A stretch of DNA of 64,000 nt. Origin: Candidatus Aenigmatarchaeota archaeon. Lineage in GTDB: Archaea; Aenigmatarchaeota; Aenigmatarchaeia; Aenigmatarchaeales; Aenigmatarchaeaceae. Shown in pieces: positions 19,707 to 56,791 of the stretch (position 1 is the first letter of the stretch; each line of letters begins with the position of its first letter). Both the position numbers and the translations under genes were made by a program. Location: the NCBI GenBank assembly GCA_043814985.1, contig JBDRJK010000019.1, positions 64,001 to 128,000 of the forward strand, given 5' to 3'. The notes beneath the pieces are model-generated. The model did not search any database. It was not told where the DNA came from and was given only the letters and a program-made list of their open reading frames with translations.

Positions 19707-19822
19707 CCCCGTCTGGCTCAATGGTAGAGCGGTCGGCTGTAGCTTTTTACTGTTGTATTAAGCATTTAGCAACCGTTCAAACAGAAACCGACAGGTTGGG
19801 AGTTCGACTCTCCCGGCGGGGA
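19707..19822 (+). tRNA. tRNA-Tyr(GTA) with 44-nt intron (19743-19786)
   Basis: Acceptor CCCCGTC/GGCGGGG, anticodon stem GTCGG/CCGAC, T-loop TTCGACT, BHB helix CTGT/ACAG. Confidence 0.93.
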
Positions 19823-19866
19823 CTCTTTTCCTTTTTAGAAAAGAATAAATCTATGTTATCCAAAAG

Positions 19867-20184
19867 ATGAATATGGTATTAAAGAGAATTAGAAACTTTT
19901 TAGAAATTCACACTGACTACTTCAAACTATCCCTCAGGAATAGGAAAAAGTCTGTCCTTTGTCCCATGTGCAGCAAAAACATATCTAAGATAAGTGCAAT
20001 AGTACTTTGTAAAAAATGCGATGAAAAATTCTCTAAGTATTCTGATAACTTGAAAAGAACAATCGTTGAGAGAATAAAGAAACGTCCGAACAAAACCAAA
20101 TGCTCTTTCTGTAATGAAGGCGGTCTGAAATTGGATAACAGACTGATTTACTGTGCTGATTGCGACGTCTCCTTCCATCTCTAG
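19867..20184 (+). CDS. hypothetical zinc-finger protein
   Basis: Four CxxC motifs (CPMC, CKKC, CSFC, CADC). Confidence 0.65.
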   Translation: MNMVLKRIRNFLEIHTDYFKLSLRNRKKSVLCPMCSKNISKISAIVLCKKCDEKFSKYSDNLKRTIVERIKKRPNKTKCSFCNEGGLKLDNRLIYCADCDVSFHL

Positions 20185-20220
20185 AATAACCTTTAAATAC
20201 TTTTCAATTGAAATAAGGTT

Positions 20221-20339
20221 TGGTTGCCGATCAAAGAGTGTAGGCAAGACCCGTTCCCATTTCGAACACGGTAGTGAATCTACATTTCGATTTCGGTTGT
20301 ACTGTCGAAAAGATGGGAACCCGAAGTAGTTGGCGACCA
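20221..20339 (+). rRNA. rrf: 5S rRNA (unlinked from 16S/23S)
   Basis: Terminal helix TGGTTGCCGA/TTGGCGACCA, conserved core CCCGTTCCCATTTCGAACACGGTAGTGAA, GTACTG...GGGAA loop E region, ~119 nt, TATA box TTTAAATA at 20192. Confidence 0.88.
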
Positions 20340-20406
20340 CTACTTTTCTAAATATTCACAAACTAGAAAACTATTTAAATATCTTACGAAATAAAACAAT
20401 AGATAT

Positions 20407-20478
20407 GCCTCGATAGTATAGTGGTTAGTATACGGGCCTGTCGAGTCCGTGACCTGGGTTCAAATCCCAGTCGGGGCG
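20407..20478 (+). tRNA. tRNA-Asp(GTC)
   Basis: GCCTCGA/TCGGGGC acceptor, anticodon loop CTGTCGA, GGTTCAAATCC. Confidence 0.95.
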
Positions 20479-20489
20479 CAATTATATTC

Positions 20490-20747
20490 ATGGTCGTCAT
20501 ACTGAAGCTGAACAAAGGAACAGCAGAGAAGCTTTTGGAATTCACTTACATCAAGCCAGAGCAGTCTAGGAATCTCTCAGGCAAGGGACTGACATTGGAA
20601 ATTGATGATAAGGACTTTTTGATAGAAATACACGAAAGGGAAAAGATGATAGAGATAGCGGACTATAATGGAAGCTTCGGGATATGGTTCAAGCTTACAA
20701 AGGAGAAAGTCAAGAAATTGAAGGAAATAGCAAAAATGGGCCCATAA
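20490..20747 (+). CDS. hypothetical protein (stop codon lies inside tRNA-Lys)
   Basis: 85-aa ORF between tRNA-Asp and tRNA-Lys with genome-like codon usage. Confidence 0.6.
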   Translation: MVVILKLNKGTAEKLLEFTYIKPEQSRNLSGKGLTLEIDDKDFLIEIHEREKMIEIADYNGSFGIWFKLTKEKVKKLKEIAKMGP

Positions 20748-20859
20748 CTCAGTTGGTAGAGTGCCAGGCTTTTATCTGTTAGATAAAAGCATGTGTAACG
20801 CGAAAGCGTGATGACAGGAAGAAACCTGGAAGTCGTGGGTTCGACCCCCACTGGGCCCA
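20738..20859 (+). tRNA. tRNA-Lys(TTT) with 49-nt intron (20775-20823)
   Basis: GGGCCCA/TGGGCCC acceptor, CCAGG-CT-TTT-A...A-CCTGG anticodon arm, GTTCGACC. Confidence 0.92.
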
Positions 20860-20865
20860 CTTTAT

Positions 20866-20975
20866 GCCGAGATAGCTCAGCCTGGTGGAGCGCCGGTCTC
20901 ATAAAATCATTATGAGATTTGATCCCAAGATGATATGGAATCCGGAGGTCGAGGGTTCAAATCCCTCTCTCGGCA
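20866..20975 (+). tRNA. elongator tRNA-Met(CAT) with 36-nt intron (~20904-20939)
   Basis: GCCGAGA/TCTCGGC acceptor; U31.U39 opposition typical of elongator Met; GGTTCAAATCC; splice position 37/38 versus 38/39 is ambiguous. Confidence 0.92.
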
Positions 20976-20998
20976 TAATTCATTGTTAAAGTGATTGA

Positions 20999-21355
20999 AT
21001 GCACTGGAAAGAGAACTTCAAGGAAGGCAAAGAAATAATTCTTTCTACATGCTCCAATTCAGGGGAGCCCAATGCCAACATAGTCATTTCCTTGGGGTTT
21101 GCTGATGAGAAGCTGCTTGTAGCGGACTGCTAGATGACAACCACAATAAAGAACCTGAGGGAAAACAAGAATATCTGCGTGGTCGGTGGCTATTTCAGAA
21201 TAAAGGGAACAGTTGAAATATACGATTCTGGAAAGTACTTTGACGTTTGTTCTGAAATTCTTCGTGGGCAAGATGAAACACTTGAAATGAGGAATGCAAT
21301 CATTATTACTGTTAAAGAAGTTTTTGACTTGGAAAATAATAAGAAAATAATTTAA
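20999..21355 (+). pseudogene. pyridoxamine 5'-phosphate oxidase-like (split-barrel FMN-binding) protein interrupted by in-frame TAG at 21131
   Basis: MHWKENFKEGKEIILSTCSNSGEPNANIV...LLVADC*MTTTIKNLRENKNICV...FRIKG reads through in one frame. Confidence 0.75.
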
Positions 21356-22024
21356 TTACCAATACATTTTCTGCTCCTTTCCTATCTTCAGTCTGAAGTA
21401 GTTCAATAGGTAATACTTGAAGGCTGTCCTGTGGAAGCCTTTCTTGAAGCGCCTTGCAGAAATGAGCATGTACAATTCTTTACAACACTTGACCTTCCCC
21501 ACCTTTCTCAACCTGTTGCCCAGGTCAAAGTCCTCCAAAAAATTTAATCTGAAAGGATGCTTCTTCAGAATATCTCTTTTGAAGGCAGCGTTCGATGCGC
21601 ATATGCAAGGGTAATCCATTTTTGAGACTATCCTCAAAAACAAATCTCCCCATACTTTCAAACCGATCCTGGCCTCGGTTTTTGCATCATATGGGATTAT
21701 TGGCCCGAATATGCATACATTGTCTTTCATTAATTTAGATATTTTTTCAATCCAGTCATCGGGGGGACGGCAGTCAGCATCGCAATATGCTACTATTTCT
21801 CCTTTAGCAGTCTTCCATCCAAGGTTCCTTGCACTGGCAATTCCATTTTTTTTGTCCCTGACAACTTTGTCAGCGTATTTCTTGGCTATATTATATGTGT
21901 CGTCAATTGAATGTCCGTCCACGACAATTATTTCAGGTTTCAGAGTCTGCCTCTTCAAACACTGCAGACATTTCTTTATGTACTTTTCCTCGTTCTTGGC
22001 GCAGACCACCACAGATATTGTCAT
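21356..22024 (-). CDS. glycosyltransferase family 2
   Basis: ISVVVCAKNEE, VVDGHSID, ARNLG, DADC, ED. Confidence 0.92.
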   Translation of the reverse strand: MTISVVVCAKNEEKYIKKCLQCLKRQTLKPEIIVVDGHSIDDTYNIAKKYADKVVRDKKNGIASARNLGWKTAKGEIVAYCDADCRPPDDWIEKISKLMKDNVCIFGPIIPYDAKTEARIGLKVWGDLFLRIVSKMDYPCICASNAAFKRDILKKHPFRLNFLEDFDLGNRLRKVGKVKCCKELYMLISARRFKKGFHRTAFKYYLLNYFRLKIGKEQKMYW

Positions 22025-22069
22025 AAGAGAAATATGAAAAAACAAAATATATAATGCTTGTGCAAGAGT

Positions 22070-24700
22070 TTACTTCTTTGTCTTGAGTGCTGCCTGCGCA
22101 GCAGAAAGAATGGCTATTGGAACCCTGTAGGGAGAAGCGCTGACATTGGTAAGTCCTATGCTGTGGAAATACTTGACGCTTTCAGGGTCTCCACCATGCT
22201 CCCCGCAAACACCTATCTCAATACCCTTCTTCACCTTGTTGGCCTTCTTGATTGTTATCTCCATCAGCTGTCCCACCCCGACCTTGTCTATGGTCTGGAA
22301 CGGGTCCTTCTCTAATATGCCACTGTCTAGATAACATGAAATGAACTTGCCTGCGTCGTCCCTTGAGAAACCAAGGGTTGTCTGCGTTAGGTCGTTCGTG
22401 CCGAAGCTTATGAAGTCAGACTCCTTTGCAATCGCATCAGCTGTCAACGAAGCTCTCGGAAACTCTATCATGGTTCCTATCTGGTATTTTATCTTGCCTT
22501 GGGCTCCTGTCTCCTTGGCAGCCTTCAATATTATCTCCTTGATTTTTCTGAACTCTTGGATATCAATAATATTAGGAACCTCGATCATGGGTTTGGGATT
22601 TTTGCCCGCTTTTTTGGCTTTCAATGCTGCCTTGAAGATGGCCTTGGCCTGCATCTCACTTATTTCAGGATAGACAACACCTATTCTGCATCCCCTGAAG
22701 CCGAGCATAGGATTGAACTCATGTAATTTGGAAATCCTCTCCCTTATTGTCTTTTCAGGAGTCTTTGATGTTCTGGACAATGTCTTTATGCCGCCCTCTG
22801 TTTTGGGCAGGAACTCGTGCAATGGTGGGTCAAGCAGTCTTATTATCACAGGTTTATTGTTCATGACCTTGAATATTGCTACAAAATCACTTACCTGGTG
22901 TGGCAAGAGCTTGTCAAGTGCAATCCTCCTCTCCTTTTCATTGTCTGCTATGATCATTTCTCTCATTGAGTTTATCCTGTCCTCCTCGAAGAACATGTGC
23001 TCAGTGCGGCACAATCCAATTCCCTCGGCGCCAAAGTCTAGTGCCACCTTGGCGTCATGTGGGTTGTCTGCATTGGTCATTATCTCCATCTTCTTGACCT
23101 TCTTTGCCCATTCCATCAACACTCCAAACTCGTCAGATATGATAGGATCAATAACTGGAAGCTCACCCAAATAGAATTCGCCTGTTGTTCCGTCAAGCGT
23201 GATGTAGTCCCCTTCCTTGATTTTTATGAAGCCTACTGTCATCATGTTGTTTTCCTCGTCAATCGATATTTTCCCGCAGCCCGCAATGCAGCACTTGCCC
23301 ATTCCCCTTGCGACAACAGCAGCGTGCGAGGTCATGCCGCCTCTTGCTGTCAGTATGCCCTCTGCGACATGCATTCCCTCAATGTCCTCTGGTGATGTCT
23401 CGTTCCTAACAAGTATTACTTTCTCATCCCTGTCGCTTGACCATACAAGAGCATCCTCTGCTGTGAACACAACCCTTCCAACAGATGCTCCTGGCGATGC
23501 TGGCAGGCCCTTGCCCAGCGGCTTCTTCTTTTCCTTGGGGTCTATTCTTTTATGTAGGAGCTGCTCCAGTTTGCTCGGCGCTACTCTCATAATTGCCTCC
23601 TCTTTTTTTATGAGGCCTTCCTTGACCATGTCAACAGCAATTTTAACAGCTGCCGGTCCTGTCCTTTTCCCGTTTCTTGTTTGTAAAATGAAAAGCTTGC
23701 CCTTCTGGACTGTGAATTCTAAATCCTGCATGTCCTTGTAATGCTTCTCAAGCTTGTTCCTTATCTGATACAGCTGCTTGTAAATGACTGGCATCTCCTT
23801 CTTTAGCTTGTCTATGCTTTTGGGCGTTCTTATTCCTGCAACCACATCCTCTCCTTGAGCATTGATTAGGTATTCGCCGTAGAACTTGTTCTCTCCCGTG
23901 CTTGGGTTTCTTGTGAAAGCAACACCAGTACATGAGTCTTCTCCCATGTTGCCAAAAATCATGGTCTGTACATTCACGGCAGTTCCAATCAGACCCTTTA
24001 TGTCGTTTATTTTCCTGTACTTTATTGCTCTAGAGTTGTTCCATGAACTGAAGACAGCGTCAATTGCCATTTTCAGCTGCTTCTTGATATCATTTGGAAA
24101 GTCCTTTTTTGTTTCCTTTTTGATGACTGCCTTGAAGTCCTTTACCAATTTCTTGAGGTCATCAACCCCAAGTTCGTAATCATAATGTATATCCTTTCTC
24201 TTCTTTGCCTTGGTTATTATTCCTTCAAAGTGCTTGTGCTCCACATCCATGACAACATTCCCGAACATCTGTACGAACCTTCTGTAGGAATCCCATGCAA
24301 ATCTTTCGTTGCCAGTGTTTTCTTTTAATCCTTTCAACGTCTTTTCATTTAGACCTAGGTTCAATACTGTGTCCATCATGCCAGGCATGCTGACAGCAGC
24401 GCCGCTCCTTATTGATAATAGCAGAGGCCTCTTCACATTTCCCAGGCAGAAGCCCATCTTGTCCTCCAGCTTCTTTATGTTTTTATCAATCTGCTCCTGC
24501 AGTCCAGAAGGATATGAATTTTTGTTCTTGTAAAAGTAATCGCATGTTTCTGTTGTTATGGTGAACCCAGGTGGCACTGGCAGGCCCATTTTTGTCATCT
24601 CTCCCAGGTTTGCTCCTTTGCCTCCTAGAAGGAGTTTGTCCTTTGTATTGCCCTCTCCGAAGAAATACACGAATTTTTTTGATTTGGTGTTTGTTTTCAT
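22070..24700 (-). CDS. ppdK: pyruvate, phosphate dikinase
   Basis: GGKGANL, RSGAAVSMPGMMDTVLNLG, GGMTSHAAVVARG, GIGLCRTEHMF, SFGTNDLTQ, GVCGEHGG. Confidence 0.98.
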   Translation of the reverse strand: MKTNTKSKKFVYFFGEGNTKDKLLLGGKGANLGEMTKMGLPVPPGFTITTETCDYFYKNKNSYPSGLQEQIDKNIKKLEDKMGFCLGNVKRPLLLSIRSGAAVSMPGMMDTVLNLGLNEKTLKGLKENTGNERFAWDSYRRFVQMFGNVVMDVEHKHFEGIITKAKKRKDIHYDYELGVDDLKKLVKDFKAVIKKETKKDFPNDIKKQLKMAIDAVFSSWNNSRAIKYRKINDIKGLIGTAVNVQTMIFGNMGEDSCTGVAFTRNPSTGENKFYGEYLINAQGEDVVAGIRTPKSIDKLKKEMPVIYKQLYQIRNKLEKHYKDMQDLEFTVQKGKLFILQTRNGKRTGPAAVKIAVDMVKEGLIKKEEAIMRVAPSKLEQLLHKRIDPKEKKKPLGKGLPASPGASVGRVVFTAEDALVWSSDRDEKVILVRNETSPEDIEGMHVAEGILTARGGMTSHAAVVARGMGKCCIAGCGKISIDEENNMMTVGFIKIKEGDYITLDGTTGEFYLGELPVIDPIISDEFGVLMEWAKKVKKMEIMTNADNPHDAKVALDFGAEGIGLCRTEHMFFEEDRINSMREMIIADNEKERRIALDKLLPHQVSDFVAIFKVMNNKPVIIRLLDPPLHEFLPKTEGGIKTLSRTSKTPEKTIRERISKLHEFNPMLGFRGCRIGVVYPEISEMQAKAIFKAALKAKKAGKNPKPMIEVPNIIDIQEFRKIKEIILKAAKETGAQGKIKYQIGTMIEFPRASLTADAIAKESDFISFGTNDLTQTTLGFSRDDAGKFISCYLDSGILEKDPFQTIDKVGVGQLMEITIKKANKVKKGIEIGVCGEHGGDPESVKYFHSIGLTNVSASPYRVPIAILSAAQAALKTKK

Positions 24701-24848
24701 TAAATCTTTTACTCCTCTCAATGAGTAAATATTGATTTTTTAATATATTTAAAATTTACACAATAACCAACATTTATTTTGATGTTCAATAAAAGATTAA
24801 AGAGTTGTTATATAAATAAAATATCCAAGAAACATATATATTGAAAAT

Positions 24849-24922
24849 GCCTCGATAACTCAGTTCGGTAGAGTGCCTCACTTGTAATGAGGATGTCGGG
24901 GGTTCAAATCCCTCTCGAGGCT
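24849..24922 (+). tRNA. tRNA-Thr(TGT)
   Basis: GCCTCGA/TCGAGGC acceptor, CCTCA-CTTGTAA-TGAGG. Confidence 0.95.
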
Positions 24923-25067
24923 TCAGTTTTTTTCAGATATGGAAAATCCAGAATTTAAATTAAGGTCTTAAAACACTTTCAACGAGCATTCTCAAGACTT
25001 TTTAAAGCTTTCATTAGTTTATAAGATTCCGTATAATTTTATAAATGAGTTTTTCTCTATTCTTAAT

Positions 25068-26099
25068 ATGCTTCCTACGGTGAGTTTGATTGTTCCAGCG
25101 AGGAACGAGGAGAAGGTTATAGGCAAATGCGTAAGAAGTTTGTTAAATTTGGACTATCCCAGAGACAAGCTAGAGTTAATAGTTGCAATAGACGGCTCCA
25201 AGGACAGAACCTTAGAGATATGCAAGAGCTTTGGTAGGAGAGTGAGGGTCATAAAATCCTGTCCAAAGACATGCAAGGGAGACGCCTTGAACAATGTGAT
25301 ACCCAAGGCAAAAGGCGAGATAATAGGTATCTATGATGCTGACTGTATTGTTGATAAAAACTGCCTGAAACATGCTGTCAAGCACTTTTCTGATAAAAAA
25401 ATAGCAGGAGTTTGCGGCAATCTCAAGTCCCACAACAAGGAGCAGGGCATGATTGCAAGGTCACTGGCCCTAGAAACCAGCTTCATATCTTTCATAGAGT
25501 ACTTCCTTAACAGTCTCGGAGCCAACACACATTTCTTTGGAAAGAACATGTTCATAAGAAAGAATGTTTTGATGGATGTGGGCTGTTTTGACACTGAGAC
25601 TTTTGTGGAAGACGTGGAGATGTCAATAAAGCTGAAAAAATACGGTTACAAGACGGTTTTCGAGCCCAATGCAATTGCATGGAACGAGGAGCCGCCTTCC
25701 TTCAGAGCATTCTTCAAGCAGCGTATAAGATGGGCCAGAGGAGCTGCAAAGCTGCTTAAGTACAAAAGAAGGCATGGAAAGGAATTCTTGTCAGATGCAA
25801 TGCACGGCATATACTTCTACGTTCCACCTTTCGGTCTTATAACAGCAACTGTCCTTGCAATTGTTATGCAGTTCGGCTTGCCCTTTTTCTTGATACTTCC
25901 CTTTATTGTCCTTTTTATGTTCAACATGGTTCTGCTGGTTTATTCGAGGATAAAGTTCAAGGAGCCTATGGGAGATTTGCTTTATCTGCCGGTGTGGTTT
26001 GTTTTGAGCAATGTTCACTTGGTCTTGTTGCTCAAAGGCCTTCTAGATGAGAAAATGGAAAAGAGTGTTTCTTGGAATTCTGTCAGGGCATTTTCTTAA
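25068..26099 (+). CDS. GT2 processive glycosyltransferase (cellulose-synthase-like)
   Basis: DGS, DAD, ED and QRIRW (QxxRW) motifs; C-terminal TM helices. Confidence 0.9.
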   Translation: MLPTVSLIVPARNEEKVIGKCVRSLLNLDYPRDKLELIVAIDGSKDRTLEICKSFGRRVRVIKSCPKTCKGDALNNVIPKAKGEIIGIYDADCIVDKNCLKHAVKHFSDKKIAGVCGNLKSHNKEQGMIARSLALETSFISFIEYFLNSLGANTHFFGKNMFIRKNVLMDVGCFDTETFVEDVEMSIKLKKYGYKTVFEPNAIAWNEEPPSFRAFFKQRIRWARGAAKLLKYKRRHGKEFLSDAMHGIYFYVPPFGLITATVLAIVMQFGLPFFLILPFIVLFMFNMVLLVYSRIKFKEPMGDLLYLPVWFVLSNVHLVLLLKGLLDEKMEKSVSWNSVRAFS

Positions 26100-26141
26100 A
26101 TGTAAATATATAAAAACACTTGCATATTATTCTCTTAAACA

Positions 26142-26250
26142 GGGGTCATAGTCCAACCAGGCCAAGACGGCTGGCTCCAGTCATGGAGCTTTGATTCCGA
26201 AGATGAAAGGAAGAAACCAGCTGATGGGGGTTCAAATCCCTCTGACCCCA
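26142..26250 (+). tRNA. tRNA-Trp(CCA) with 35-nt intron (26181-26215)
   Basis: GGGGTCA/TGACCCC acceptor, GCTGG-CT-CCA-G...A-CCAGC. Confidence 0.92.
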
Positions 26251-26265
26251 CTTCATTGTGATTGT

Positions 26266-26664
26266 ATGGATTGTGTCTTTTGCAAGATTGTGAAGGGGGA
26301 GATACCCTGCCACAGGGTTTATGAGGACGATGAGTTCTTTGCATTTTTTGATATAAATCCTCTGAACCCAGGACATACTCTCCTTATTCCCAAGAAGCAT
26401 GTCCAGTGGGTTAATGATTATGAGCCATTTTGCAGTTACTGGCAAACAGCAAGGAAAGTAGCTAATGTGATACAGAAGGTTCTTGACCCTTTGGTTGTCT
26501 CCTATGTTGTATATGGTTTGGGTGTTCCCCACGCGCACATACATCTGATACCAAAGTTCGAGAACGACGAGCATCCATTGGGACCCAACCCTGAGAAGGT
26601 GCAGAAGATACCAGAAGAGGAAATGAAAAAAATCGCTGAGAAAATAAGAAAGTCTTTTAAATAA
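26266..26664 (+). CDS. HIT family hydrolase
   Basis: MDCVFCKIVKGEIP, PGHTLLIPK, VPHAHIHLIP. Confidence 0.95.
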   Translation: MDCVFCKIVKGEIPCHRVYEDDEFFAFFDINPLNPGHTLLIPKKHVQWVNDYEPFCSYWQTARKVANVIQKVLDPLVVSYVVYGLGVPHAHIHLIPKFENDEHPLGPNPEKVQKIPEEEMKKIAEKIRKSFK

Positions 26665-26687
26665 TTACAATTAAAATCTATTCTAGA

Positions 26688-26759
26688 GCGCCGATAGTCT
26701 AATGGTTAGGACTTCAGCCTTCCAAGCTGATAATCCGGGTTCGAATCCCGGTCGGCGCA
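26688..26759 (+). tRNA. tRNA-Gly(TCC)
   Basis: GCGCCGA/TCGGCGC acceptor, TCAGC-CTTCCAA-GCTGA. Confidence 0.95.
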
Positions 26760-26775
26760 CATTTTTGTGATTAAC

Positions 26776-40479: not shown

Positions 40480-40565
40480 GCGGAGGTCCGATAGTCTGGT
40501 CAATTCGGTAGGCTTGAGGAGCCTATGGGTTAGTCCCTTCGCAGGTTCAAATCCTGCCCTCCGCA
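40480..40565 (+). tRNA. tRNA-Leu(GAG)
   Basis: GCGGAGG/CCTCCGC acceptor, TAGGC-TTGAGGA-GCCTA, long variable arm, GCAGG-TTCAAAT-CCTGC. Confidence 0.93.
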
Positions 40566-40624
40566 CAACATATTTTCTCATGAAGGGCGGCACATTAATA
40601 AGCAAAATTTCATAAATTGTTAGT

Positions 40625-41107
40625 ATGAAGAAAAGATATTTTTTGATTATTGCAGTTTTGATTTCAATTATAGTATCATTATACTTCTATATATCATATT
40701 TTTACATCGCGGAAGTACCAAATGAGTATATAGCTTGTGGTTGTGGTTGCTGTGGTGGTATGGAACCTCAAGAAGAATGTATCTACCATTCAAAAGGTGA
40801 TGATATGAGGTCAATTATTATAAACGATAGGTTAATGTCCAGAGACCCTATATGCCCTACGGTTGGGTGTAGTTTTCCTATAAAATATGTCTATTGTGAC
40901 TGCACTCAAGACAATTCCGGTTCATGTGATAGAACTTGCGAGTCTGATGATGATTGTCAATTATCATGTGGTTGTGACTGTATCTCTAAAAACGAAGTTT
41001 GTAGATTTGCAGGTACTTTTTGCGAAGAACCGGAAGAAAATCCAAGCCTTTATCAGAAATGCATATGTATCAATAACAGATGTGAACTTAAATGGGAAGA
41101 GGGTTAA
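40625..41107 (+). CDS. Cys-rich secreted or membrane-anchored protein
   Basis: N-terminal hydrophobic helix; 20 Cys in 160 aa (CGCGCCG, CGCDC). Confidence 0.75.
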   Translation: MKKRYFLIIAVLISIIVSLYFYISYFYIAEVPNEYIACGCGCCGGMEPQEECIYHSKGDDMRSIIINDRLMSRDPICPTVGCSFPIKYVYCDCTQDNSGSCDRTCESDDDCQLSCGCDCISKNEVCRFAGTFCEEPEENPSLYQKCICINNRCELKWEEG

Positions 41108-41130
41108 GGGAGAAACGTAGTTTCTCCTTA

Positions 41131-41156
41131 GGAGGTTCAAATCCTGCTCTCCGCAC
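41131..41156 (+). repeat. copy 2 of tRNA-Leu 3' end (att-like)
   Basis: GGAGGTTCAAATCCTGCTCTCCGCAC versus tRNA GCAGGTTCAAATCCTGCCCTCCGCAC: 2 mismatches in 26. Confidence 0.9.
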
Positions 41157-41206
41157 ATCTCATGTTCTTCACCGCTTGATGTGAGGGCAGCAATAAGAAT
41201 AAATTT

Positions 41207-42406
41207 CTAAATTTTTGTTGGAGAAGCTTCTCTCAAATAATTTTTATTGATTTTTATTCTGGTTCCATTGTGGTAGTATTTTTTCTTTGATAATCTCTCC
41301 CATCTTACCTCTTTCCCGAGTATGCTTAAAGTTCTTGCTACAACCAAACAAACAAGGGACAGCGCCGAGTCAAAAGTCAAATAAAGAGGGATGAACGGAA
41401 TAAGACGCCCCTCTTTCATTTTAAACAAACCTATGGAGATAGCTAAGAACGAGATTAGAAACGGAATAATAGAAAAAATACGCAATTGCAGGCTGCTCGC
41501 AAAAATAAAGGCTATTAAAGAAAACAAACTTATGGTCTGTATAGCCACTGGATTGAGGGATATCACCGTTGAGGTAATTTTTTTCTTTCTAAATACGAAT
41601 CTCGTGGGCATGCTGTACCATCTCAACCTCTGTATAAAAAAGTGATAGACACTCTCGACCTCCTCTTGCCATACACTTGCACCAGTAACGGCCATCTTCC
41701 AGCCCCTGTTTTTCAGATTGCTGGCCATTTCTTCATCTTCTGCGAGCGTCTTTCCATGACCACCCACATCTTTCCACGCTTTCCTCTTGAACGAATAATT
41801 AGCGCCGCAAATGTACTGTTCAACGCCCATCCTCGCTCTTCCCCAATACGCAACATTTAACATCCACACGTCCTCTATGGCCCTCATCCTGGTCAGCAAG
41901 TTCTTGTACCAGTTACCGCAGAATACCAATCCCAAGGATGCGCCAATCCTTTTGTCACTCATCAGAGTGCGGACGTGTTTCATCAGCCAGTCTCTTTCAC
42001 ATATTCCGTCAGGATCTGTGAGGGCGATGATGTCCCCCTTTGCCACATCTCTTATGGCATCGTCAAGGACCTGGCCCTTTCGGTTGTATCCCTTTTTGCT
42101 TCTATAATGTTTTATCAGCCCCAATTTCTCGTAGTGCTTGCATATTTTCAGAGTCTTGCCAGTAGACCCGTTGTCATAAACTATTATCTCGTACTTGTCC
42201 TTTGGATAGTTCAATTTAAGGAAGTTTTCGATCTTTCTTTTTATTACATTTCCTGCCCAGTCGTCCCTGTATGCATATGTCATGACGCTGACCTTTGGCA
42301 AGACCTTTGGTTCCTTTGGCTGATAAGGTCTTTTCGCAATAAAGGCATAAAGAAGGTTGAGTAAGGATGACAGTATGAACAAAGATGATAGTATTTCTGT
42401 AAGCAT
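41207..42406 (-). CDS. GT2 processive glycosyltransferase
   Basis: DNGS, DPD, AED, QRLRW; N- and C-terminal TM helices. Confidence 0.9.
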   Translation of the reverse strand: MLTEILSSLFILSSLLNLLYAFIAKRPYQPKEPKVLPKVSVMTYAYRDDWAGNVIKRKIENFLKLNYPKDKYEIIVYDNGSTGKTLKICKHYEKLGLIKHYRSKKGYNRKGQVLDDAIRDVAKGDIIALTDPDGICERDWLMKHVRTLMSDKRIGASLGLVFCGNWYKNLLTRMRAIEDVWMLNVAYWGRARMGVEQYICGANYSFKRKAWKDVGGHGKTLAEDEEMASNLKNRGWKMAVTGASVWQEEVESVYHFFIQRLRWYSMPTRFVFRKKKITSTVISLNPVAIQTISLFSLIAFIFASSLQLRIFSIIPFLISFLAISIGLFKMKEGRLIPFIPLYLTFDSALSLVCLVVARTLSILGKEVRWERLSKKKYYHNGTRIKINKNYLREASPTKI

Positions 42407-42456
42407 ACTTTATTATTGGTGGCGTTTAAATAAGCTTTTTTATAAATTCTGATCTA

Positions 42457-42480
42457 GTTCAAATCCGGCCCTCCGCACCA
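42457..42480 (+). repeat. copy 3 of tRNA-Leu 3' end, ending in CCA
   Basis: GTTCAAATCCGGCCCTCCGCAC: 1 mismatch in 22 versus the tRNA; the copy ends ...GCACCA. Confidence 0.88.
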
Positions 42481-42512
42481 TTCTTATTAATCAAGAATTC
42501 TAAATTGATAAT

Positions 42513-43352
42513 ATGAAACTAATAATCTTAGGTTCTGGTGGAGCATGGTCTTGTCCCATACCCACTTGCTTTTGCGAAAAATGTAGAGAAGCAAGAGACA
42601 AGGGAGTGCCTTATTCCAGAGGAGGGCCTTCCTTATTCATAGAAGAGGAGAGCATACTGTTTGATACCCCGGAGGAAATTACTCAGCAATTAAACAGGGA
42701 GAAAGTAAAGAGATTGAGGCACGTATTCTACACTCACTGGCATCCGGACCACACCCAAGGCATGAGGATATTTGAGAATATTGCAAGACGTTTGAAGCAC
42801 CCGCAAGAATTACCGTTTGATGCGGAAATGATTGATGTCTATATACCAGTTGAGGTCTATGATGATTTCAAAAAGTATTTGTCGAATTTTTTCTATTATG
42901 AAGAAAATGGATGGATAAGGGTTCATAAGATAGAAGACAGGAAAGAAATAAAGATAGGAAGGTTGTCCATAATTCCTCTAAGCTTTAGGGTTCCGGGAAA
43001 ATCCCGTTATGGGTATCTAATAAAGGAAAGTAAAAAGAAGGTATTCTACGGGCCTTGTAGCATATGGAGCATGACAACTGACGAGAGCTTTGACAGTACT
43101 GATTTAATGCTTATAGAATTTGGTTGGTTAGGGAACACAGAAGAGAAAAGAAAGAATGATCCCAAGACTTCATCTATTCACTATCACATAAGCTTTGAAG
43201 AGGATATAGAACTTATCAGAAAACTGAAACCTAAACGGACTATACTTACACATATCGACTATACGGATTTTGAAAATGCTGAGAGGTTGGTAAAACCATT
43301 CAAAAAATTGAATATAGATATAGCATATGATGGCATGAAAATAGAGGTTTGA
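42513..43352 (+). CDS. MBL-fold metallohydrolase (PhnP-like)
   Basis: ILGSGG, CFCEKC, THWHPDH, THI, AYDGM. Confidence 0.9.
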   Translation: MKLIILGSGGAWSCPIPTCFCEKCREARDKGVPYSRGGPSLFIEEESILFDTPEEITQQLNREKVKRLRHVFYTHWHPDHTQGMRIFENIARRLKHPQELPFDAEMIDVYIPVEVYDDFKKYLSNFFYYEENGWIRVHKIEDRKEIKIGRLSIIPLSFRVPGKSRYGYLIKESKKKVFYGPCSIWSMTTDESFDSTDLMLIEFGWLGNTEEKRKNDPKTSSIHYHISFEEDIELIRKLKPKRTILTHIDYTDFENAERLVKPFKKLNIDIAYDGMKIEV

Positions 43353-43356
43353 TTAG

Positions 43357-43372
43357 AGTTCCAACATCCGCA
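43357..43372 (+). repeat. possible highly decayed copy 4 of tRNA-Leu 3' end
   Basis: AGTTCCAACATCCGCA retains GTTC...TCCGCA right after the MBL stop codon. Confidence 0.35.
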
Positions 43373-43401
43373 TTTTTATTCTAAAAATTCCAACTAACCA
43401 T

Positions 43402-44082
43402 ATGGTAGACTGGTTCGGTTCGTTTCCCGTGGCTCCACTGCTTTTCGCGTTTCTGATTCCAATAGTTTACTCCTTGGTTAAAAGAAAGGAACTCAAATCA
43501 ATCCTATTAATGACAGCATGCTCAGTAGGGGTCGTTGCCTTCTATCCAATTACTAACTTTCTGAGCAGCTCCATCCCGTTGTTTGGTTATTTAATAGGAA
43601 AAGTCATTCTTTTTGTCTTGTTCCCAATAGGGACAATATTCTTCATAGAGCGCTGGAGCATCAAAGACATCTTCACGAACTTGGGTGTCAGAAAGGAGAA
43701 CCTAAAGAAAAGCATTCTCTATGGTTTATTAGCTGCAGTGGTTACAATAGCCATCACCACCTTGATTATTACTAGTAGCCAGATTGATTCTGTCTATAGC
43801 ACGGTCATGTTTTTCGAGTCCTTCACAGAGGAGTTCTTCTTCAGGGGCTTTTTATTGCTGTATTTAATGAAAAAGACCAGTCCCAAGGTAGCATATGCAA
43901 CATCCATACTCGGCTTCATCCTAATACACCCCCAGAACTTTGACAATCTATTTATAATCTCAACAATGGTGCAGGGAGTTCTGATGACTGTCATTGCCGA
44001 CAAGACCAAAAACATAGTGGGTCCTTGGGTTGGTCACGGCCTTAATAGGGTTGTTCCCAGTCTTCTGAGAATCCTTTTCTAG
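43402..44082 (+). CDS. CPBP (Abi/CAAX) family intramembrane metalloprotease
   Basis: EEFFFRG, F..IH, H..N motifs; multi-TM. Confidence 0.9.
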   Translation: MVDWFGSFPVAPLLFAFLIPIVYSLVKRKELKSILLMTACSVGVVAFYPITNFLSSSIPLFGYLIGKVILFVLFPIGTIFFIERWSIKDIFTNLGVRKENLKKSILYGLLAAVVTIAITTLIITSSQIDSVYSTVMFFESFTEEFFFRGFLLLYLMKKTSPKVAYATSILGFILIHPQNFDNLFIISTMVQGVLMTVIADKTKNIVGPWVGHGLNRVVPSLLRILF

Positions 44083-44129
44083 ATAATCTATATTTAAAGA
44101 TTTCTTCCTTACTTTAATCTAGTGATAAG

Positions 44130-44396
44130 ATGGGAACTCCAAACTTTGAAATTAAAAGGGAAGAACATAAAAAGTGGTTAGAAGAACAAGGGATACCATT
44201 TGGAAGATGTGACTATGCTCCTAAAGAGGGGAATCTGGGTACTAACAAGTGTAGCATATACTCTCATGTTGATCCTGAATTCCAAGTTTTCACATGCCTT
44301 TCTGCATGTGGTAATGAAGTTAATGGTTTTGAGAACAACCTGAAAGTAACGCCATGTGAACATAAAAGATTGAAAGACCAATATGAAAAGAAATAA
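44130..44396 (+). CDS. hypothetical Cys-containing protein
   Basis: 88-aa ORF with 5 Cys; TATA box upstream. Confidence 0.55.
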   Translation: MGTPNFEIKREEHKKWLEEQGIPFGRCDYAPKEGNLGTNKCSIYSHVDPEFQVFTCLSACGNEVNGFENNLKVTPCEHKRLKDQYEKK

Positions 44397-44399
44397 TAA

Positions 44400-44819
44400 T
44401 CAGAATGATTTCATATATTCTCTTATCTTATTAACCGAAATCTTGACTTCTTCAATTATTTTGTCATTCTTCATGTTCTCTTTGGCATAATTCATGATAG
44501 GTCTTACTGACTCTATCTTCCTGCCGAATCTCTCCATCCATCCGTGCCTAGGAAATATCCAGAGGTGAAATTTATGCTCGGAATCCTCGTTCTGAAAGAG
44601 GTAGACATCCTTTATTTTTAGTACTTCCTTCATTCCCCTTCTGAGATTTATTAGCAGTTTTATGAATTCCTTTGACTCTTCTTCATTGAGGTCAGCAACA
44701 GAATTTATCTTCCTTTTGGATGATATTATGAAGAACCCTGGTATGGGAATCTCCCAGTCTTGGCCAACTTCGAAATGGTTAGTGGTTATTATTGTCTCAT
44801 CAGGGAATAATTTTTCCAT
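44400..44819 (-). CDS. HIT-like protein
   Basis: PIPGFFIISSKR...HKFHLWIFPR, a variant HIT motif. Confidence 0.8.
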   Translation of the reverse strand: MEKLFPDETIITTNHFEVGQDWEIPIPGFFIISSKRKINSVADLNEEESKEFIKLLINLRRGMKEVLKIKDVYLFQNEDSEHKFHLWIFPRHGWMERFGRKIESVRPIMNYAKENMKNDKIIEEVKISVNKIREYMKSF

Positions 44820-44892
44820 ATTAAGAAATTATGAAAATTGGTATTTATTAGAATATTATAATTTTTTAAACCAGCATTTCTAAATCTATTAT

Positions 44893-45408
44893 ATGAAAAA
44901 GACAAAGACTTACGAGAACTTTCCTTTATGGATAGTCGCCTTAACTAACCTTTTCTCCCTATCAATCTATCTGATAGGATTATATATTTTCTCAAGATTT
45001 GGAATACTATTCGCTGTATTCTTCGCTCTTTACATTATCTGGACTGAATTCCGCTTGGTTACAAAATCCTGCAGGAATTGTTATTATTATGGTAAATTCT
45101 GTGCATTCGGAAGGGGCAAGTGCTGTTCTCTGTTATTCAAGAAAGGCAGCCCCAAGAGGTTTGTGAAAAGAAAGGTAACAATGAAAGACCTAATCCCAGA
45201 TTTCCTATTAACTATACTTCCAATGATAGCAGGAGCCATACTTCTAATATACGACTTTTCATGGTGCATTCTTGCATTAATAGCCTTTTTGATTGTTTTC
45301 GGATTCTTTGGAAATGCAGTGATCAGGAGCTCTTTCGCCTGTAAATATTGCAAGCAAAGGAAAATAGGATGCCCTGCAGAAAAGTTATTCAAGAAAAAGA
45401 ACAAATAA
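44893..45408 (+). CDS. 4-TM membrane protein with Cys clusters
   Basis: CRNCYYYGKFCAFG and CKYCKQRKIGCP motifs. Confidence 0.7.
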   Translation: MKKTKTYENFPLWIVALTNLFSLSIYLIGLYIFSRFGILFAVFFALYIIWTEFRLVTKSCRNCYYYGKFCAFGRGKCCSLLFKKGSPKRFVKRKVTMKDLIPDFLLTILPMIAGAILLIYDFSWCILALIAFLIVFGFFGNAVIRSSFACKYCKQRKIGCPAEKLFKKKNK

Positions 45409-45441
45409 GCTTTTTAACCTTGAATTACAATTAAAATCAAT

Positions 45442-46146
45442 ATGAAAGGCATGATTGTACCTGACCATCTGGGCGTTATTCTTGACGGCAATAGGAGATG
45501 GGCTATCGAAAATAAACTGAAGCCTTGGAAAGGCCACGCTTTCGGGGCTGAGAAATTTGAAAAATTTTTGGAATGGTGTGTGGAATTTGAAATACCTCAA
45601 ATTTCCGCATATGTCCTATCAACAGAGAACCTTAACAGGTCAAAAAGAGAAGTTGATGCTCTGCTAGATTTATTCCAAAATGAGCTGGAAAGAGTCGAGA
45701 ATAATAAGATAAGCCTTCTGGACAAGTATGAGATAAGAATGAAATTTATAGGAGATTTGACCAGACTGCCTTTGGGACTCCGTAGAGTAATGGGAAGAAT
45801 AATGGACAAGACAGAAAAATATAACCAAAGAGTCTTCAACATTATGGTTGCTTATGGTGGGAAGTTCGAGCTGACAAACGCTGTCAAGAAAATAGCTAAA
45901 AAGGCCTTGGAAACAGGCATAGTAACTGTGACCGAGAAGACAATAAAGGACAACCTTATGGTAAAAGATGATATTGACCTTCTTATTAGGACTGGTGGGG
46001 AGAAGAGGCTTTCCAACTTTATGCCAATCCAGGCCGCCTATGCAGAGATGATAGTTCTAAGAAAATTGTGGCCAGACATCAGGAAAAGCGATCTGAAAAG
46101 ATGTATTATGGAATACTCTAGAAGGCAGAGAAGATTCGGCCACTAG
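45442..46146 (+). CDS. uppS: cis-prenyltransferase (undecaprenyl-diphosphate synthase family)
   Basis: ILDGNRRWA, STENLNR, AYGG, IRTGGEKRLSNF, RRFG. Confidence 0.96.
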   Translation: MKGMIVPDHLGVILDGNRRWAIENKLKPWKGHAFGAEKFEKFLEWCVEFEIPQISAYVLSTENLNRSKREVDALLDLFQNELERVENNKISLLDKYEIRMKFIGDLTRLPLGLRRVMGRIMDKTEKYNQRVFNIMVAYGGKFELTNAVKKIAKKALETGIVTVTEKTIKDNLMVKDDIDLLIRTGGEKRLSNFMPIQAAYAEMIVLRKLWPDIRKSDLKRCIMEYSRRQRRFGH

Positions 46147-47771
46147 ACCTTTTCTAGTATCTTTCTTACTCTTTCTCTTCCTATTATCAGAATGAACGGA
46201 GCTAGTCTGGGACCCCAAGACTTTCCTAGCAAAGACAGATATATTGCCTTGAAGAAATCCTTTGAATCGATTCCTACTTCCTTTTTTATCTCGAAGAACC
46301 TTCCATACAATTCCTTTTCTGTTAATTCTTTTTTCAAGTCATTAGCCAAAATTTTTAATGCTTGCCTTTGTTTATCATCCAACTTTTCCTTTGGGGGATT
46401 TTCCAAAATCTTTATCTTGTAGCTTTCGCCTCCGTATCTTTCTGCCCAGTTCTTGGCCATCACGAGCATTTCCTTTATCTTGTTCTCGTCCTCTACTTTC
46501 TCCAGATGTCCTGTTGACTTGAACAGCTCGATTGCCTTCTCAAGCATCTTCTCCTTTGGAACCAATTGCGAAACTAAAGCAGCATAATCAAAAGGAATCT
46601 GGGCCGGCATCTTGTCGGGAACCTCGACCTCGCTCATAACATATAGCCTCTTTGAGAACTCCTCTTTGTCGTCCTCTTCCATGCCAAAGTAAATTCTCTG
46701 CAGCTTGTAGAACTCGTCAACATACTTCGGGATGTACTCATAAGAAAAATCTCTGACTCTGTTCGGTCTCTTCATGAATAGCAGTCTCAGTATTTGCGGC
46801 GGAGCAAACAAGGGCCACTCCCATGTTGCCACCACATTACCCACGGATGCCGACATCTTCTTGCCAGATACAGTCAGGTACTCATAAGGTTGAATGTAGT
46901 TCTTTCCAGGATAAGGCTCTGCCCAACCAAATATTTTTTCACATATCTCACCAGCGCTCCAGAAGGAACCCCCTGGCATGAAGTGCTCCTTGCCGCCAGC
47001 CTCGAAAATGACCTTCCAGTGTGCCCATAACATTCCCCACTCTACTCTCCACAACAATTTTCCGTTCTTCATGTTGCTTTCTCCCTTGAAGCCGCAGCCT
47101 TTCAGCTTTGTGTAAGCATCCACACCGAAAGGTTTGAACTGGTAGTCCTCGCAGGAATATTTCACAACACCCCCATCCATACTAGTCACCTTTGTTGTCA
47201 TTAGTTTTCTACAGTTCTCGCATACAGGCTTCCATGGAGTCCAGTCTTTGGCTAATGGGACCCTTCTCTTCTTGTTGAGAATCTCTTTGATTTCATCAAG
47301 GTTTTCAAACACAAGCTTGATCCACTTGGAGAAAGTTCCTGCTCTATATTCCTTGGATGTTGAGAAGTATTCAGGGCTTGTCCCGAATTTCTTCAGGCTT
47401 TCCACAAATTTCGTGCAGAAATGCTCGCTGTAAGTCTTGTGGCAACCCTCAGGGCATGGTATGTCAGCAACAGGCATTCCCAGATACTTGTCAAAGCTTT
47501 TGGGTATCCCTGCAGGAACCTTTCTCAAGGCGTCCATGTCCTCCCCTATCCACAGGAACCTGGGTTCACGACCCTTTTCCTTCAGTGACCTTACAACAGC
47601 ATCGTTCCTTATGACGTCGGACGCGTTGCCTATGTGAGGAACTCCGGAAATTGAAGTAGAACTTTTTACAGCAAAATTTTTGGGCAGCTCGTATTTCTTT
47701 TTTATGTAATTGTAACCTTTCCTGTTCAAAATCATGTCTGCTATCTCATCTGACCAAAATATTTCTCCCAT
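46143..47771 (-). CDS. lysS: lysine--tRNA ligase, class I
   Basis: SGVPHIGN, DALRKVP, GKLLWRVEW, KMSASVGN, GPRL. Confidence 0.96.
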   Translation of the reverse strand: MGEIFWSDEIADMILNRKGYNYIKKKYELPKNFAVKSSTSISGVPHIGNASDVIRNDAVVRSLKEKGREPRFLWIGEDMDALRKVPAGIPKSFDKYLGMPVADIPCPEGCHKTYSEHFCTKFVESLKKFGTSPEYFSTSKEYRAGTFSKWIKLVFENLDEIKEILNKKRRVPLAKDWTPWKPVCENCRKLMTTKVTSMDGGVVKYSCEDYQFKPFGVDAYTKLKGCGFKGESNMKNGKLLWRVEWGMLWAHWKVIFEAGGKEHFMPGGSFWSAGEICEKIFGWAEPYPGKNYIQPYEYLTVSGKKMSASVGNVVATWEWPLFAPPQILRLLFMKRPNRVRDFSYEYIPKYVDEFYKLQRIYFGMEEDDKEEFSKRLYVMSEVEVPDKMPAQIPFDYAALVSQLVPKEKMLEKAIELFKSTGHLEKVEDENKIKEMLVMAKNWAERYGGESYKIKILENPPKEKLDDKQRQALKILANDLKKELTEKELYGRFFEIKKEVGIDSKDFFKAIYLSLLGKSWGPRLAPFILIIGRERVRKILEKV

Positions 47772-49412: not shown

Positions 49413-56541
<7,129 letters not shown>

Positions 56542-56545
56542 GGAA

Positions 56546-56791
56546 TCACTTCTTTTTGACAACTATCCTGTAGTATGTAGTTGATCCTGCAACTGGGGAC
56601 TTTCTAAGAATCTTTAAAATATCTCCCTCTTCTGCTTCCAATTCCTTTACAGCAGGGTCGTTGGCAAGTATTTTGGGCAGTTGATTGGGTTTTATCTTCA
56701 GACTTTCAAGCAGTTCCTTTTTTTCACTATCATCAAGAATAATGTGCTCTGGAACTAATTCATGTTTTAGAACGCTAAATTCTTTTCCCAA
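56546..56791 (-). CDS. rpo5: RNA polymerase subunit Rpo5 (H)
   Basis: HELVPEHII, QLPKI...DP, RKSPVAG...YYRIVV; likely TTG start after GGTGA. Confidence 0.95.
   Translation of the reverse strand: MGKEFSVLKHELVPEHIILDDSEKKELLESLKIKPNQLPKILANDPAVKELEAEEGDILKILRKSPVAGSTTYYRIVVKKK

Follow-up and report, generated by a model that had tools for sequence, protein, structure and literature searches.

Single-gene cassettes bounded by tRNA tails recur across an archaeal family and are probably moved in trans

Why should the 3' end of one tRNA gene recur several times behind that gene, with unrelated genes in between? The question is raised by a locus in the window, the stretch of 64,000 nucleotides analysed here (positions 64,001 to 128,000 of contig JBDRJK010000019.1 from a Candidatus Aenigmatarchaeota archaeon), which belongs to an 808-kb metagenome assembly, 91% complete, designated G000. 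The tRNA is tRNA-Leu(GAG), which stands at the same place upstream of uppS in 12 relatives. A first-pass annotation had described the interval between the two as an integron-like array of gene cassettes, the newest next to the tRNA. Our comparisons with relatives indicate that the locus belongs to a family-wide cassette system that works like an integron array, is not one, and is filed as a variant of accretion at tRNA attachment (att) sites. We consider it probable that the units are non-autonomous, att-flanked cassettes moved by a tyrosine integrase acting in trans. The units share defined ends around unrelated genes, contain no recombinase, occupy sites that are empty in relatives and are found behind several different tRNAs.

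The tail is numbered here so that the G of the T-loop GTTC is position 1 and the discriminator is position 21. The window holds three matches to it with at most 4 mismatches, each of 200 shuffles holding 0, and copies 2 and 3 are the only clear ones (at most 4 mismatches in 21) outside tRNA genes in G000. Between the two anchors the following features were recognised, classes A and B being types of right end described further below:

40480..40566, + strand: tRNA-Leu(GAG), the array anchor; tail positions 1-21 are 40545-40565
40567..40624, + strand: left end of unit 1, with a shortened inverted repeat of the tail (anti-tail repeat, 40583-40591) and a TATA-like box at -30, presumably a promoter
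40625..41107, + strand: passenger 1, a Cys-rich 160-aa protein with a hydrophobic N-terminus and no family
41096..41134, + strand: right end of unit 1, class A, with a hairpin at 41106-41129; common to cassettes with unrelated genes
41135..41156, + strand: tail copy 2, part of a 26-nt match at 41131-41156
41157..41215, + strand: full-length left end whose own forward gene is missing, with three T(C/G)A(C/T) motifs, an anti-tail repeat at 41183-41191 and promoter-like text
41220..41234, + strand: stub like a class B palindromic right end, apparently fused to the 3' end of the passenger 2 gene, as judged against genomes G001 and G017
41207..42406, - strand: passenger 2, a family 2 glycosyltransferase (GT2; Pfam), of an older unit
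42457..42479, + strand: tail copy 3, of the allele found at the intron-bearing tRNA-Leu on contig C15 of G000 (identical over all 23 nt)
42480..42512, + strand: left end of unit 3, with a TATA-like box at -29; like left ends at other tRNA-Leu loci
42513..43352, + strand: passenger 3, a metallo-beta-lactamase (MBL)-fold, PhnP-like hydrolase (Pfam)
43358..43383, + strand: tail copy 4, decayed, a displaced old site; its flank is the one that follows GT2 in G001
43402..44082, + strand: CPBP protease (Pfam), past the last recognisable tail
44130..45408, no single strand given: three further genes (88 aa, HIT-like, 171 aa), with no tails left
45442..46146, + strand: uppS, the conserved downstream anchor

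The first-pass counts for the repeats at 41131 (2 mismatches in 26) and 42457 (1 in 22) were both reproduced, and the copies are spaced by 590, 1322 and then, to copy 4, about 900 nucleotides, in agreement with unit sizes previously given as ~590, ~1,320 and ~900 bp. A possible decayed copy had been placed near 43357; over the 19 nt of 43365-43383 the window is identical to what follows GT2 in G001, tail and flank included, and judged by this identity copy 4 is a genuine decayed tail. The conserved stretch had been said to shorten with distance from the tRNA; copy 3, however, is not simply more decayed but is an exact foreign tRNA-Leu allele. The similar AT-rich text noticed after the copies can be assigned to the cassette left end: the TATA-like boxes of units 1 and 3 lie at the peak position for the genome, and an AATT..AAATT motif is found in these two alone among 442 upstream regions. 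Each unit had been said to hold exactly one gene, which fits most cassettes but not unit 2, where a left end with its promoter is followed by a palindromic right-end stub and then by the GT2 gene; from this makeup, unit 2 is a composite, fused remnant. Pfam agreed with the GT2 (minus strand), MBL and CPBP assignments, and 'secreted' for the Cys-rich protein reflected solely its hydrophobic N-terminus. Passenger 1 has partial and distant homologues only, whereas the GT2 gene has homologues at tRNA-Leu(GAG) in two genomes, G001 and G003, and at a serS-topA site in four further loci. The MBL gene gave no match in 20 relatives with the window query, and the CPBP gene gave one (33%, located elsewhere). 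The genes of 44130..45408 had no match in the fetched loci and are probably an older part of the variable region.

Since the window comes from a metagenome assembly, and one of the fetched loci (L141) is probably chimeric, the repeats might be an assembly artefact, as the first-pass annotation had itself cautioned. We find this barely credible: independent contigs from runs X1 and X2 rebuild 40538-41188 with 0 differences, and X1 contigs rebuild 42298-46772 with none (one of the public runs may be the source sample). In addition, the copies differ from one another in sequence, and the same architecture is present in many relatives.

What, then, is a unit made of? We found 44 distinct tail-to-tail spans of up to 3.5 kb (median 675 bp) and kept 41; those dropped were from L141, the probable two-species chimera, and L019, which holds two tRNAs. 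Compact single-gene units account for 25 of the 41, with a median coding fraction of 0.79; the gene starts 57-101 nt after the tail in 23 of these 25, and in all 25 the stop codon lies 1-88 nt before the next tail. Left ends combine three T(C/G)A(C/T) motifs with the tail in inverted form and with AT-rich text that resembles a promoter. Right ends fall into three classes, all of them able to fold. Class A is a hairpin with a 3-nt loop, as in window unit 1. Class B is a palindrome with 8-bp arms and a 7-nt spacer, which shows compensatory changes in 4 of its 8 pairs and whose score was reached by 0 of 500 shuffles; in one class B end (L146:5648-5689) the spacer is largely inverted, as expected were the palindrome a recombination site. 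Class D keeps tail positions 11-21 only and carries an inverted T-loop motif. Class A and B copies agree with the local tRNA from the T-loop onward, and a crossover always at tail position 11 would be true for class D only.

Unrelated genes carry the same left end plus one of these three palindromic right ends. Of 9 units with a class D right end, 7 have a G(G/A)TTCA left end; for A and B the figure is 2 of 21, the units not being independent. Inverted-repeat left ends occur with A or B in 15 of 21 units, against 1 of 9 for D, a difference inflated by the choice of the 33 metagenome loci, which were picked by their tail-plus-repeat pattern. Left and right ends, on these counts, occur as matched pairs. 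Among 51 passengers, Pfam matches were obtained for 15 (GT2, TspO, TauE, methyltransferases, nucleotidyltransferase, HEPN and others) but not for the other 36, and a recombinase or integrase fragment was found in 0.

These observations bear on the possibility that the units are remnants of the type known as cis-mobilizable elements (CIMEs), namely decayed integrase-bearing elements that retained attL and attR, accreted in tandem and are immobile alone. It is known that tRNA att sites are reused in tandem, that there are CIMEs without an integrase and that secondary sites occur (PMC5704250, PMC6563490, PMC5861418, PMC4779613, PMC9668308, PMC6813254, PMC8371274), and our units resemble CIMEs and tandem accretion in having direct repeats of a tRNA 3' end around integrase-less DNA, in site reuse and in secondary sites (PMC5704250, PMC8371274, PMC6563490). 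They keep both att sites and lack integration and transfer genes, and they match a three-step route already described (PMC5704250). Besides the fused remnant in unit 2, 16 of the 41 units are not compact single-gene units, and behind the tRNA-Thr of G008 stands a 1.9-kb element whose integrase is truncated and whose far arm is class D-like, a likeness recognised post hoc. CIMEs are, however, by definition decayed integrative and conjugative or integrative and mobilizable elements (PMC5704250), whereas the cassettes are mostly 0.3-1 kb long and hold one intact gene each, in uniform geometry, with standard matched ends on unrelated genes, and they recur at several tRNAs and at orphan sites. Ends common to unrelated genes argue against the random, eroded remnants that the first-pass annotation had allowed for, as do the compensatory changes in the class B palindrome, the passengers free of integrase fragments, and the finding of the same passenger at different sites in different genomes. 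No functional element of the kind that mobilises CIMEs in cis was seen adjoining the units, and the search for a parent element with cassette ends found none, though it gave one weak lead, L104. We regard decayed remnants as an unlikely explanation.

If the units are cassettes, their content should vary from genome to genome. Of 20 family relatives, 13 carry the exact Leu tail; among 350 further genomes of the phylum it turned up in 3, a single time in each. Behind the constant tRNA the content differs among relatives, a comparison that had been proposed for this locus: in the 13 genomes with both anchors, the tRNA-Leu(GAG)-uppS interval ranges from 90 bp (G006) to 7.5 kb, and no genes are shared except GT2, in 3 genomes of the genus, and a 72-76-aa protein, in 2. 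A search behind other tRNAs had been suggested, and the system proved wider than first assumed: there are arrays behind tRNA-Lys, -Gly and -His, arrays built on Thr tails, and arrays at hotspots that are not tRNA genes. Searches with right ends alone showed Lys, Thr and other Leu tails after class A, and a His tail after class B. Locus L217 (G019:C62) has about four copies of a tRNA-Thr tail, the tRNA-Thr gene not being found within the 9 kb fetched. Metagenome arrays hold up to seven tails. Intergenic tails were found in G001, G008, G013, G017 and G020 at places reused across genera, namely after serS, the trxR operon, the H+-pyrophosphatase (H+-PPase) gene, kae1 and rtcB, and beside GAPN, thiI and an SSB-like gene (names inferred from protein sequences).

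In G000 itself no tails were found at the hotspots checked. A second small array lies at G000:C11:35783-36310, with two short Leu cores 517 bp apart and a 134-aa gene between them, near thiI, a place also used in G017; a weaker tail match on C11 turned out to belong to it. At G000:C21:770-1125 there is the far junction of an unassembled tRNA-Leu(TAG) array, where a 60-aa gene and a truncated class A end precede tRNA-His; Leu(TAG) lies upstream of His in relatives. Elsewhere in the window, seven clustered tRNA genes, four of them intron-bearing, occupy 19707-26760, with no tail copies found behind them, and a single 1918-aa open reading frame (50806-56562) fuses RNA polymerase subunits B and A', which are separate reading frames in G025.

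Signs of movement come from comparisons between relatives, in which filled and empty sites, suggested earlier as a check, could be paired. The tRNA-Leu before rpl18e is empty in G000 and carries in G002 an 870-bp unit that shares its right end with window unit 1 but holds a methyltransferase gene; the tRNA-Lys site is filled in G013, whereas in G020 this tRNA directly adjoins the next gene; and the MBL unit is present in G000 and absent from G001. Passengers are also shared between different sites across genomes, with pairs at 93%, 84% and 79% identity: a 123-aa passenger at the serS and trxR sites (93%), a 240-aa one at the kae1 and serS sites (84%) and, in six loci, a 154-aa one. Compared with its close relative L009, locus L159 has one extra unit, next to the tRNA, which indicates that addition at the tRNA happens. 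Addition inside an array happens as well, since in the window the old allele with its flank has been pushed to copy 4 and a foreign allele stands at copy 3; the MBL unit thus sits within the post-GT2 tail, ~1.9 kb from the tRNA, and 'newest next to the tRNA' fails as a rule. In G019 a Gly tail with a Gly-matched repeat is found 700 bp past tRNA-Glu, and elsewhere a tail of the Leu(TAG) type occupies a site where others have the GAG type, suggesting that the tail travels with its cassette. Mobility is, in all these cases, read from comparison. A read joint from 40566 to 42493, seen in three runs, was rejected as an empty allele because its 13 inserted letters and its 26-letter side both agree with the left end at G000:C21, and two other joints are probably from co-occurring relatives.

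Could the host's homologous recombination between short repeats (the tails and the 40-50-nt right ends) do most of the shuffling after rare integrations, with no dedicated enzyme? Several carriers have no integrase, and between L145 and L141 a deletion ends inside identical 43-bp class A repeats, not in the tail. As L141 looks like a two-species chimera, the pair is unreliable, and repeats of up to 21 nt are poor substrates for homologous recombination. Precise, tRNA-restoring insertion and the matched ends would be left unexplained, and we judge this account very unlikely.

The cassette mechanism that we favour would run as follows. A cassette comprises a tRNA tail, a left end with inverted tail copy and presumed promoter, usually one gene, and a palindromic right end. 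Recombination between two tails would excise it as a circle, which could re-insert at any matching tail, whether of a tRNA gene, inside an array or at an orphan site elsewhere. The incoming tail would restore the tRNA, displacing the old tail to the far side, with the crossover within tail positions 1-11. The tyrosine integrase would act in trans and would most likely be brought by a tRNA-targeting element or virus that is present only for a time. That such integrases use one tRNA att site repeatedly, in tandem, is established (PMC8371274, PMC6563490). The units are flanked on either side by a direct repeat of the tRNA 3' end, the tRNA being restored, and they lack the integrase gene that tRNA-targeting elements own.

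The most unusual feature of the cassettes is the target-matched left-end repeat. It is the complement of the local tRNA tail at Gly (G019, G013), His (G020) and, by eye, Lys (G013), and Leu alleles likewise each have their own complement. Of 204 tRNA genes, 11 have a repeat of their own tail, 6 of these being from loci selected for the repeat, while control pairings gave 16 in 4170; for non-Leu tRNA genes the figure was 3 of 144, where the control rate of 0.38% predicts ~0.5. At the CCGG-type sites L029, L043 and L177:9764 the repeat fits its own allele better, and at the weak-repeat sites L184 and L177:8999 the standard allele fits better. This invites a different account, in which another enzyme, casposase-like and target-duplicating or guided by base pairing, uses the anti-tail repeat as a guide, or the repeat folds a single-stranded donor; either role would explain the many tRNA targets. 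The foldable right ends and the G-T wobble pairs retained in Leu repeat variants (a set selected for the repeat) are consistent with it, and casposons too stack at tRNA-Leu (PMC4779613). The Leu repeat pairs at 98%, but in this same selected set no two-sided change occurs; terminal inverted repeats were found in 0 of 41 units (on average 4.4-4.8 of 20 terminal bases are complementary), and near-side foreign tail alleles argue against target duplication. Searches of 5 genomes returned no Cas1, IS110 or resolvase and a single sub-cut-off Y1 match, and a reverse transcriptase in G000 only. We rate another enzyme as improbable. The reverse transcriptase (572 aa, G000:C9:12767-14485) lies beside terminase- and portal-like genes and is possibly part of a diversity-generating retroelement in a provirus.

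Is there a tyrosine integrase that could do the work? PF00589 matches occur in 14 of 21 family genomes, and matches to an alignment of 14 family integrases in 15 of 21; several of these enzymes lie directly behind tRNA-Thr, -Ser, -Glu or -Arg. They may be SNJ2-like, a name suggested by their C-terminal zinc ribbon and position behind a tRNA; the best NCBIfam match on this point was NF040815, below its cut-off. As reported earlier, the window holds no tyrosine recombinase, all PF00589 matches of G000 lying outside it. The search of the genome for a stand-alone enzyme, also suggested then, gave four integrases (C15:7213-8454; C15:44764-end; C19:53630-54796; C19:152227-end). One belongs to a 7-kb element with a 14-bp repeat at the start of an archease-like gene, and another element follows a tRNA-Glu-like tail, the tRNA itself being absent. 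In 3 of 6 tRNA-linked integrase elements the far repeat is readable, ~13 bp from tail position 9-11, like class D, and one such element has a D-like arm motif; by its sequence this likeness may serve as a lead only. In viral contigs, three tail/junction patterns gave 0 matches, the class A pattern gave 20 of which 0 were followed by a tail, and one family integrase as query found no relative.

Several observations speak against an integrase acting in trans, and they should be taken together. No integrase was found in or beside any Leu-type unit examined, behind a Leu tail in 30 integrase loci inspected, or within 5 kb of the tail-plus-repeat pattern (4 matches in two genomes, 33 in metagenomes). 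The cassette-bearing genomes G001, G002, G003 and G013 (81-90% complete) have no PF00589 match, the readable att sites of the four G000 integrases are non-Leu sequences, and cassette-end profiles gave no match in integrase-bearing loci. Described archaeal integrases use one core per subgroup (PMC5861418), so a single recombinase acting on Leu, Lys, Gly, His and Thr tails would be unlike them. Circle junctions numbered 0 in contigs of four runs, contigs being prone to drop rare variants. Genomes G005, G007, G025 and G035 vary behind tRNA-Leu(GAG) with no recognised tails, which makes variable content alone weak evidence; and the mechanism does not explain how orphan sites arise, the unoccupied hotspots of G000 showing no clear target motif. 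Finally, the class A motif occurs in 5 genomes of three other families, in several cases tail-less, also inside an apparent tRNA-Lys intron and right before start codons (L241 in G203; L242 and L247 in G052; L240 and L246 in G202), and may be a separate dispersed repeat. Tail-less class A ends lie also at G000:C14:1710-1757 (minus strand) and in L221 (G002), where two of them stand before non-tRNA sequences, which appear again upstream and so form direct repeats.

How do the cassettes compare with known systems? Like SNJ2-type elements they use a short core at a tRNA 3' end (14 bp in SNJ2, ~13 bp in three elements of the cassette-bearing family), and SNJ2-type elements have conserved P and P' arms, class D junctions starting at the same place (PMC5861418). 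Those elements carry their own integrase, with one core per subgroup (PMC5861418), whereas the cassettes have none. Integrons and clusters of attC sites lacking an integron integrase (CALINs), including archaeal ones, likewise have short, mostly co-oriented single-gene cassettes, mostly of unknown function, with structured sites between them and an enzyme possibly in trans (PMC9668308). The integron-like label of the first-pass annotation is borne out in this respect, with short, variable single-gene cassettes sharing ends and 25 of 41 units in co-oriented single-gene form, but membership of the integrons is not: the site is a tRNA tail, the cassettes apparently have their own promoter, and no attC pattern, IntI or attI was found. 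GTTRRRY occurs at 0 of 84 junctions and RYYYAAC upstream of 3, against 6 in control stretches (a simple rule, not the IntegronFinder model), and IntI (TIGR02249) was over cut-off in 0 of 5 genomes. Locus L064 (G009), with a 279-aa XerA/IntI-like integrase over the NF040815 cut-off and two direct repeats upstream, is possibly a true integron-like locus unrelated to the tail cassettes.

The pdif modules of Acinetobacter plasmids are small passengers without their own recombinase, lying between XerC/D sites on which the host Xer acts; our cassettes differ from these in having tRNA tails instead of plasmid XerC/D sites and in several carriers without a tyrosine recombinase match. Methanosarcina casposons insert in tandem at the tRNA-Leu 3' end and at intergenic sites, as the cassettes do, but have terminal inverted repeats, target duplications, Cas1 and PolB (PMC4779613); such repeats and Cas1 were not found here. 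In the literature consulted, mainly open texts, we met no description of single-gene cassettes shorter than a kilobase that combine standard ends with target-matched repeats.

It is tempting to go further, and to speculate that this is a second, independently evolved cassette system, with universal tRNA-tail att sites, standard left and right ends added to captured genes, and an inverted repeat that specifies or licenses the target, in which one trans-acting recombinase loads many tRNAs and seeds off-tRNA arrays; we hold this to be possible but doubtful. If a recombinase can indeed be retargeted among tRNAs, it would be a useful tool. Since the ends are defined, by a palindrome that covaries and an inverted repeat matched to its target, the mechanism is open to direct tests. 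As an integron analogue, the system would escape both integrase-dependent island finders and attC scanners. Genome-reduced DPANN archaea have few known routes to new genes, and much of their lineage-specific gene content would be accounted for by cassettes that bring their own promoters and use tRNA-tail sites over again.

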